Assembly: GCF_003018255.1 (NCBI RefSeq)
Contig: NZ_CP027440.1
Source of the DNA: Escherichia coli
GTDB taxonomy: Bacteria; Pseudomonadota; Gammaproteobacteria; Enterobacterales; Enterobacteriaceae
Direction: 5' to 3' (one strand)
Length of the DNA: 64,000 bases
The translations under genes and the position numbers were made by a program. Below are positions 48,018 to 48,398 of the stretch, one piece after another. Under the pieces are notes generated by a model that did no database searches, was not told the DNA's origin, and saw only the letters and a list, made by a program, of their open reading frames with translations. Position 1 is the first letter of the stretch. Each line of letters begins with the position of its first letter.

Positions 48018-48073
48018 AAGTGCGCACTGAATTGACTCAACTGTTTGTTACCCGTTGATTGCGCAGATCCTGT

Positions 48074-48103
48074 ATTCGGCCTACGCGAGGGCGCAGGCCG
48101 AAT
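48074..48103 (+). terminator. stem-loop downstream of paralog C (possible terminator)
   Basis: attcggcct-N12-aggccgaat 9-bp inverted repeat; no strong T-run, so weak. Confidence 0.35.
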
Positions 48104-48326
48104 CAGATGCCTTAGCATCACCATCCGGTGGCAGGACGTTGTTTTTCGAATTAGCCCAGGTGTCGCTGTGTTGTCAGAATATGAGTCAAAACGTGCGAGG
48201 TGGATTGTGCTATAGAGAAATCTTTTATCGCCTCTAATTAAGATGAGTTTTTTTCATCTTCCCTGATTTTTCCTCACCATCATTGGTTATTTTTCGGTTG
48301 ACGCCCTTCGGCTTTTCCTTCATCTT

Positions 48327-48358
48327 TACATCTGGACGTCTAAACGGATAGATGTGCA
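48327..48358. promoter_or_regulatory. met boxes (MetJ operator) of the metF promoter
   Basis: acatctggacgtctaaacggatagatgtgcac contains repeated AGACGTCT-like octamers just upstream of metF. Confidence 0.6.
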
Positions 48359-48398
48359 CAACACAACATATAACGATAAGCGATTGATGAGGTAAGGT

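Follow-up and report, generated by a model that had tools for sequence, protein, structure and literature searches.

A probable old deletion scar with a LysR-family gene relic beside the intact metF control region of Escherichia coli

The 381-bp stretch between nucC and metF (positions 48018-48398 of the window, i.e., the whole 64,000-nt stretch of Escherichia coli DNA that was analysed) is most likely an old deletion scar (48018-48243) lying beside an intact metF control region (48244-48398), and not the fresh edge of an insertion. A relic of a LysR-family regulator gene was identified next to the metF control block, and the junction was therefore interpreted as a deletion scar.

Gene order and coding content

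The window locus was 100% identical to that of E. coli strain JNE23-011. The genes follow each other in the order metL, tsx, nucA, nucB, a hypothetical gene of 374 aa, nucC, metF and katG; tsx, nucA, nucB and the hypothetical gene are on the minus strand, and nucC is on the plus strand. The stop codon of nucC has its last base at 48017, and metF starts with its ATG at 48399. The features bordering the stretch are listed below, where CMD stands for a carboxymuconolactone-decarboxylase-like gene.

38176-40608: metL
45207-46331, minus strand: hypothetical gene, 374 aa
46458-48017, plus strand: nucC (paralog C), metallophosphatase/5'-nucleotidase (open reading frame list; Pfam Metallophos and 5_nucleotid_C; RefSeq annotation)
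48018-48073, plus strand: 3' flank of nucC, 56 nt, featureless (no match to the CMD 3' profile; promoter/terminator scan empty)
48399-49289, plus strand: metF (open reading frame list; RefSeq annotation)

The preliminary description, made from the sequence of the window, had called the 381-bp stretch non-coding, and this was borne out: nothing is annotated by RefSeq within the gap (checked in the identical strain JNE23-011), and no open reading frame inside it is kept across alleles. It is highly improbable that the stretch codes for a small protein or a small RNA. Mechanical open reading frames of 56-60 codons are present, and the 243-nt segment 48018-48260, of which 17 nt lie inside the metF control block, folds with a z-score of -2.2. 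However, these reading frames are interrupted in other alleles, the spread of substitutions resembles that of neutral DNA, Rfam gave no match over 40000-50000 even at E<=1 (tRNA included), and no promoter-like site was found in the stretch by the promoter/terminator scan, an insensitive scan which also misses the real metF promoter.

Several features of the neighbourhood were recorded as well. No Pfam family was matched by the 374-aa gene that partners nucC. It accompanies nucC in five genera or more, with an identity of only 58-65%, and between the long- and short-island forms of E. coli it is 78% identical, the value for nucC being 99%. In the short-island form (strain R10, locus L002 1673-1709; also locus L005) the 3' end of the hypothetical gene overlaps that of metL by 37 bp, the two genes being convergent. 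A perfect inverted repeat of 14 bp, flanked on either side by A/T runs, lies between metL and tsx (40618-40647) and resembles a bidirectional terminator in place of the K-12 metL terminator. The inverted repeats of 70-75% identity between 42242-43311 and 46527-47536 correspond to the nucA/nucC paralogy, and the direct repeats spaced 1657 bp to the nucA/nucB paralogy.

The LysR-family gene relic

A DNA profile was searched with nhmmer, representing the last ~260 nt of the LysR gene and comprising 23 intact 3' ends from 23 species. The relic that it revealed is described as follows.

48122-48241, plus strand: 3'-end relic of a LysR-family regulator gene, with an internal deletion of ~31 nt and in-frame stop codons (nhmmer profile, alignments); its left limit, which overlaps a REP-like tail, is uncertain by ~10 nt

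With both strands of the whole window searched, 48122-48239 was the top match (18.1 bits, E=3e-5), and the same profile reached at most 3.2 bits on 2000 dinucleotide shuffles of the spacer. The alignment has almost no gaps and keeps register with the dyad at the start of the metF control block, and the TAA at 48239-48241 occupies the position of the stop codon of the intact genes. Intact LysR genes adjoin metF in Citrobacter, Klebsiella, Raoultella and Pseudocitrobacter, the last of which provided the sequences closest to the relic. Larger, independent relics of the end of this gene were found in C. gillenii and K. indica. The evidence is carried by the DNA profile and not by protein comparison, as the translated relic was not significant in BLASTP against one LysR protein (E=0.08 and 9). 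Judged from its sequence, 48122-48241 is a pseudogene relic of a LysR-family gene, of which ~120 nt are left and the intact reading frame is lost; the ~31-nt deletion and the stop codons show that it is dead. The spacers of K-12, HS-02, S. arizonae, Phytobacter, E. albertii and E1V33 yielded no LysR relic, and a relic of the CMD gene was not found in 48018-48120 with the CMD 3' profile.

Probable gene loss between metL and metF

The MetF scan returned 80 Enterobacteriaceae species; spacers and dyads were counted over 79 of them, and the conservation profile was calculated over 81 sequences. In the 79 species, the cargo between metL and metF has a fixed order and orientation of three modules: the hypothetical gene with nucC (hyp-nucC), CMD with LysR (CMD-LysR), and a LacI-family regulator with a PTS EIICB gene. 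Klebsiella spallanzanii carries all three and the other species carry nested subsets, such as hyp-nucC only (e.g., S. enterica arizonae, Phytobacter and Kosakonia), CMD-LysR only (14 species), or both of these (nine species). A minimal spacer of ~210-370 bp is found in 40 of the 79 species. The constant order and the nested subsets make differential loss the best explanation, and we infer that the direction of events was loss and not gain; given the 40 minimal spacers, it is still formally conceivable that cargo was gained repeatedly, by recombination through the conserved flanks. Two further arrangements were observed in Escherichia: Escherichia sp. E1V33 (locus L008 543-4212) has a nucC 3' fragment followed by LacI and PTS EIICB genes, and E. 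albertii (locus L010 155-1129) has an AT-rich 324-aa open reading frame directly upstream of the metF control block.

Under this scheme, the ancestor would have carried metL-[hyp, nucC]-[CMD, LysR]-(LacI, PTS)-metF. A deletion would then have removed CMD and ~750 bp of the LysR gene, leaving the ~120-nt LysR 3' end (48122-48241) joined to the nucC flank through a decayed REP-like palindrome (48074-~48120).

Among 5426 E. coli genomes, the lineage-specific 231 bp of the junction were found in 1816, always in single copy (two of the 1816 matches are on records labelled plasmid), and the K-12-type spacer of 193 bp in 3579. The long island is present in 658 of the junction genomes; the others mostly have the short hyp-nucC form, with the same right junction. 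The gene content of the island has been described before: according to the passages concerned, genomic region GR 31 (metL..metF) of the ExPEC strains BEN2908, UTI89 and RS218 contains Tsx and three UshA-like nucleotidases. It is the same island as that of the window, as checked at the UTI89 locus, and those passages treat gene content and not the junctions, the LysR relic or the spread across genera. A divergent Escherichia lineage (L009) has the same scar at 78% identity, so the deletion is older than the diversification of E. coli. Strain HS-02 (locus L004 5204-6350) has a spacer of 1147 bp with no annotated gene and with decayed nucC fragments; its right junction is ~81-85% identical to the window, with the stem-loop unchanged and a perfect TGAA in the dyad. 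In K-12-type strains (locus L003 1848-1982), PGAP places a hypothetical protein of 44 aa on the minus strand, spanning the dyad and the K-12-specific spacer; this annotation is probably spurious.

The preliminary description took the stretch for the right junction of an insertion that appears to have preserved MetJ-regulated metF expression. Spelled out, this reading has a horizontally inserted island landing in a K-12-like ancestor, downstream of metL and ahead of the metF promoter, with the promoter spared by chance. The control region is indeed unchanged, but an insertion at this end is unlikely in view of the LysR relic and of the presence of hyp-nucC at this same site in no fewer than five genera (Salmonella arizonae, Citrobacter, Klebsiella, Phytobacter and Kosakonia), where the nucC identities to E. 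coli (87-92%) rank the genera as metL does. The short and long island forms and the divergent lineage share one junction, and the hallmarks of an island junction are missing: there are no direct repeats at the boundaries, no tRNA by Rfam within 40000-50000 and no annotated integrase- or transposase-like gene. An insertion would fit the K-12-type allele, which is without the whole stretch, being the majority form, and it would also fit tsx, nucA and nucB, which are AT-rich, with a GC content of 0.40-0.45 against 0.52-0.58 in the flanks, and which turned up in no sampled species other than E. coli. On these grounds, the left portion of the island could well have been inserted.

The stem-loop at the probable deletion joint

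The probable joint of the deletion is marked by two hairpins.

48074-48103, no strand assigned: stem-loop, 9+3 bp, -19.8 kcal/mol, no U tract; probable left part of a decayed REP-like inverted pair
48106-48119, no strand assigned: small hairpin GATGC-CTTA-GCATC, -6.1 kcal/mol; matches the inner palindrome of a Citrobacter-type REP

The larger structure, previously pointed out just past paralog C, is real: in its 61-nt context it has a z-score of -3.3, and none of 200 shuffles folded equally well. It is unique within the window, occurs at one place per genome in E. coli and, tested as possible core sequence, is not part of the K-12 core. In several Citrobacter, metL is followed by a REP pair which the stem-loop and the small hairpin together resemble (78.6% over 56 nt by blastn, E=1e-5). 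With REP/BIME elements they share the extragenic place, the GGCCTAC head, the layout as an inverted pair and the closeness to that Citrobacter pair. They differ from such elements in that the hairpin is single-copy in E. coli, that its right arm reads GCAGG and not GTAGG, and that it is not matched by the generic REP HMM (E=3.4, against 1e-6 to 1e-11 for the true REPs of the window). The left arm has GGCCTAC; as right arm, E. coli has GCAGGCC and the divergent lineage L009 has GTAGGCC. The structure thus looks like a decayed REP-like palindrome at the deletion joint. Filing it as a REP was rejected, on account of the failure of the generic profile to recognise it. Four typical REP clusters with BIME-like pairs are present elsewhere in the window, at 2991-3124, 11905-12048, 17029-17136 and 53570-53678.

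Covariation in the stem was limited to one compensatory pair, no better than in shuffles. In addition, the natural change G48100A in UTI89 and JCM 20135 breaks a stem pair, which argues for weak constraint on the hairpin.

A working terminator that insulates metF from nucC would be another role for the stem-loop, and it is an improbable one. The hairpin is stable and GC-rich and lies 56 nt past the nucC stop, and some hairpin follows nucC in every genus, that of Citrobacter being a canonical terminator with a T tract. Of the two parts of a rho-independent terminator, however, the GC-rich hairpin is present and the U tract directly after the stem is absent: the 8 nt after the stem hold one U, and the next 12 nt are CAGATGCCTTAG. 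The terminator scan was empty, natural alleles disrupt the stem pair, and neither a terminator nor a rut-like C-rich/G-poor stretch was found within 48018-48243. The hairpin would perhaps sooner serve as a stabiliser of RNA 3' ends or a pause site than as a terminator. Since it is a hairpin without a U tract, some read-through from nucC into metF is possible; such read-through is not needed for metF expression.

The metF promoter and the MetJ operator

The window was aligned with a K-12-type strain. Its homology to the metL-metF spacer of K-12 begins at 48244, which is 54 bp ahead of the -35 hexamer; on the left side of the island it stops at the metL stop codon. The features of the control region are as follows.

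48298-48303, plus strand: metF -35 hexamer TTGACG, 96-100% conserved in 81 sequences, called as a sigma-70 -35 element and identical to K-12
48321-48326, plus strand: presumptive -10 hexamer CATCTT after a 17-bp spacer, overlapped by the met boxes (sequence, published overlap statement and conservation)
48318-48357, no strand assigned: MetJ operator of five tandem 8-bp met boxes, the best being GGACGTCT at 48334-48341 (operator scoring)
48389-48397, plus strand: Shine-Dalgarno region GAGGTAAGG, 97-100% conserved

The alignment left the metF promoter undisturbed and thereby agreed with the earlier view that the control region is intact. Only five of the 155 positions of 48244-48398 differ from K-12, namely 48247 and 48248 in the dyad (TGAAG in K-12, TGAGT in the window), 48288, 48375 and 48377; the -35, the presumptive -10 region, the met boxes and the Shine-Dalgarno sequence are all the same as in K-12. 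To the left of 48244 the window DNA is unlike that of K-12.

The pair TTGACG-17-CATCTT scores 6/6 and 3/6 against the sigma-70 hexamers and is not reported by a stricter promoter scan. Across the aligned metF upstream regions the two hexamers are 77-100% conserved. The transcription start is presumptive, and so is the -10, which is assigned from consensus and conservation; four genome-wide studies of transcription start sites gave no usable metF start.

Five met boxes have been reported at metF, a preprint states that they overlap the -10, and a MetJ ChIP signal has been reported at the metF regulatory region of K-12. In the window, the array matches the tandem AGACGTCT at 22 of 32 positions over 48326-48357 and at 26 of 40 over 48318-48357, with a best single box of 7/8. 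The latter score is above the best of 50 shuffles (25) and ranks second in the 64-kb window, behind only the metJ/metB operator at 36910-36949. The met boxes that had been placed at 48327-48358 are therefore a real array with coordinates one base off, the proper register being 48318/48326-48357. They begin 15 bp past the -35 hexamer and cover the presumptive -10. As in K-12, the control region would be subject to repression by MetJ-SAM at the met boxes.

Upstream dyads and the edge of the control block

The left part of the control region contains two dyads resembling MetR sites.

48244-48256, no strand assigned: dyad TGAGTTTTTTTCA, one mismatch from the MetR consensus TGAA-N5-TTCA; start of the control block and of K-12 homology
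48264-48276, no strand assigned: second, weaker MetR-like box TGATTTTTCCTCA (family consensus TGAAnATTCCTCA), 20 bp downstream of the first

The 81 sequences upstream of metF show noise up to 48244 and strong conservation from 48244 on, with a sharp onset. The TGAA-N5-TTCA dyad is perfect in 60 of the 79 species and has one mismatch in 15, for a chance expectation of 1.6 per 64 kb; its half-sites are 85-100% conserved and its spacer 55-80%. The K-12 'breakpoint' falls at 48244 because this is the left edge of a metF control block conserved in the whole family. Deletions reaching into the block would cripple metF, and the surviving alleles all stop just upstream of 48244. Selection on the control block thus explains why every allele, K-12 included, 'breaks' at this position.

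The consensus reported for MetR is TGAA-N5-TTCA, tandem MetR sites have been described at metE and glyA, and metF has been reported or predicted as a MetR target. The dyads at 48244-48276 are probably bound by MetR, to judge from their pattern. Like the tandem sites of metE-metR and glyA-hmp (ATGAA-N5-TTCAT, with a conserved distal and a weaker proximal copy), they consist of a dyad of 13/15 bp, in which the half-sites are conserved and the spacer varies, and of a weaker copy 20 bp downstream. Unlike the sites of metE, they are centred farther from the presumptive start, ~83 and ~63 bp upstream of it. The first dyad also differs from MetR sites in its left half-site: it reads TGAG-N5-TTCA (7/8) in the window and is a candidate site known here from its sequence, whereas K-12 has the perfect form. 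TGAG was present in all five typical island-bearing E. coli alleles sampled.

The loss of an ancestral nucC terminator, together with the TGAG dyad, might lead one third of E. coli, including B2 ExPEC such as UTI89, to express metF unlike K-12, a suggestion that we consider improbable. If it were true, the expression of metF would differ through nucC read-through escaping promoter control, through altered MetR input, or through both. 

Strain UTI89 has the long island, and its spacer is identical to that of the window at 378 of 381 positions. A promoter-trap screen of UTI89 reported 42.5-fold higher GFP in urine than in LB for fragment 4416691-4417181, and metF was described as a strongly urine-induced fitness gene in this strain. 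The fragment corresponds to 48159-48649 of the window, so that nucC and the stem-loop lie outside it. In this island-bearing strain, metF therefore has a promoter that is autonomous and regulated.

Implications

The value of this analysis is mainly housekeeping, since its result is an ordinary one that raises no new question for regulation or for the biology of mobile elements. Models of the island should not assume one insertion event: its right part is old, also occurs in other genera and has a pseudogene relic at its end. The metL-metF spacer offers a clean example of differential gene loss bounded by a regulatory block under selection, and methionine-regulated metF expression should be normal in island-bearing strains.
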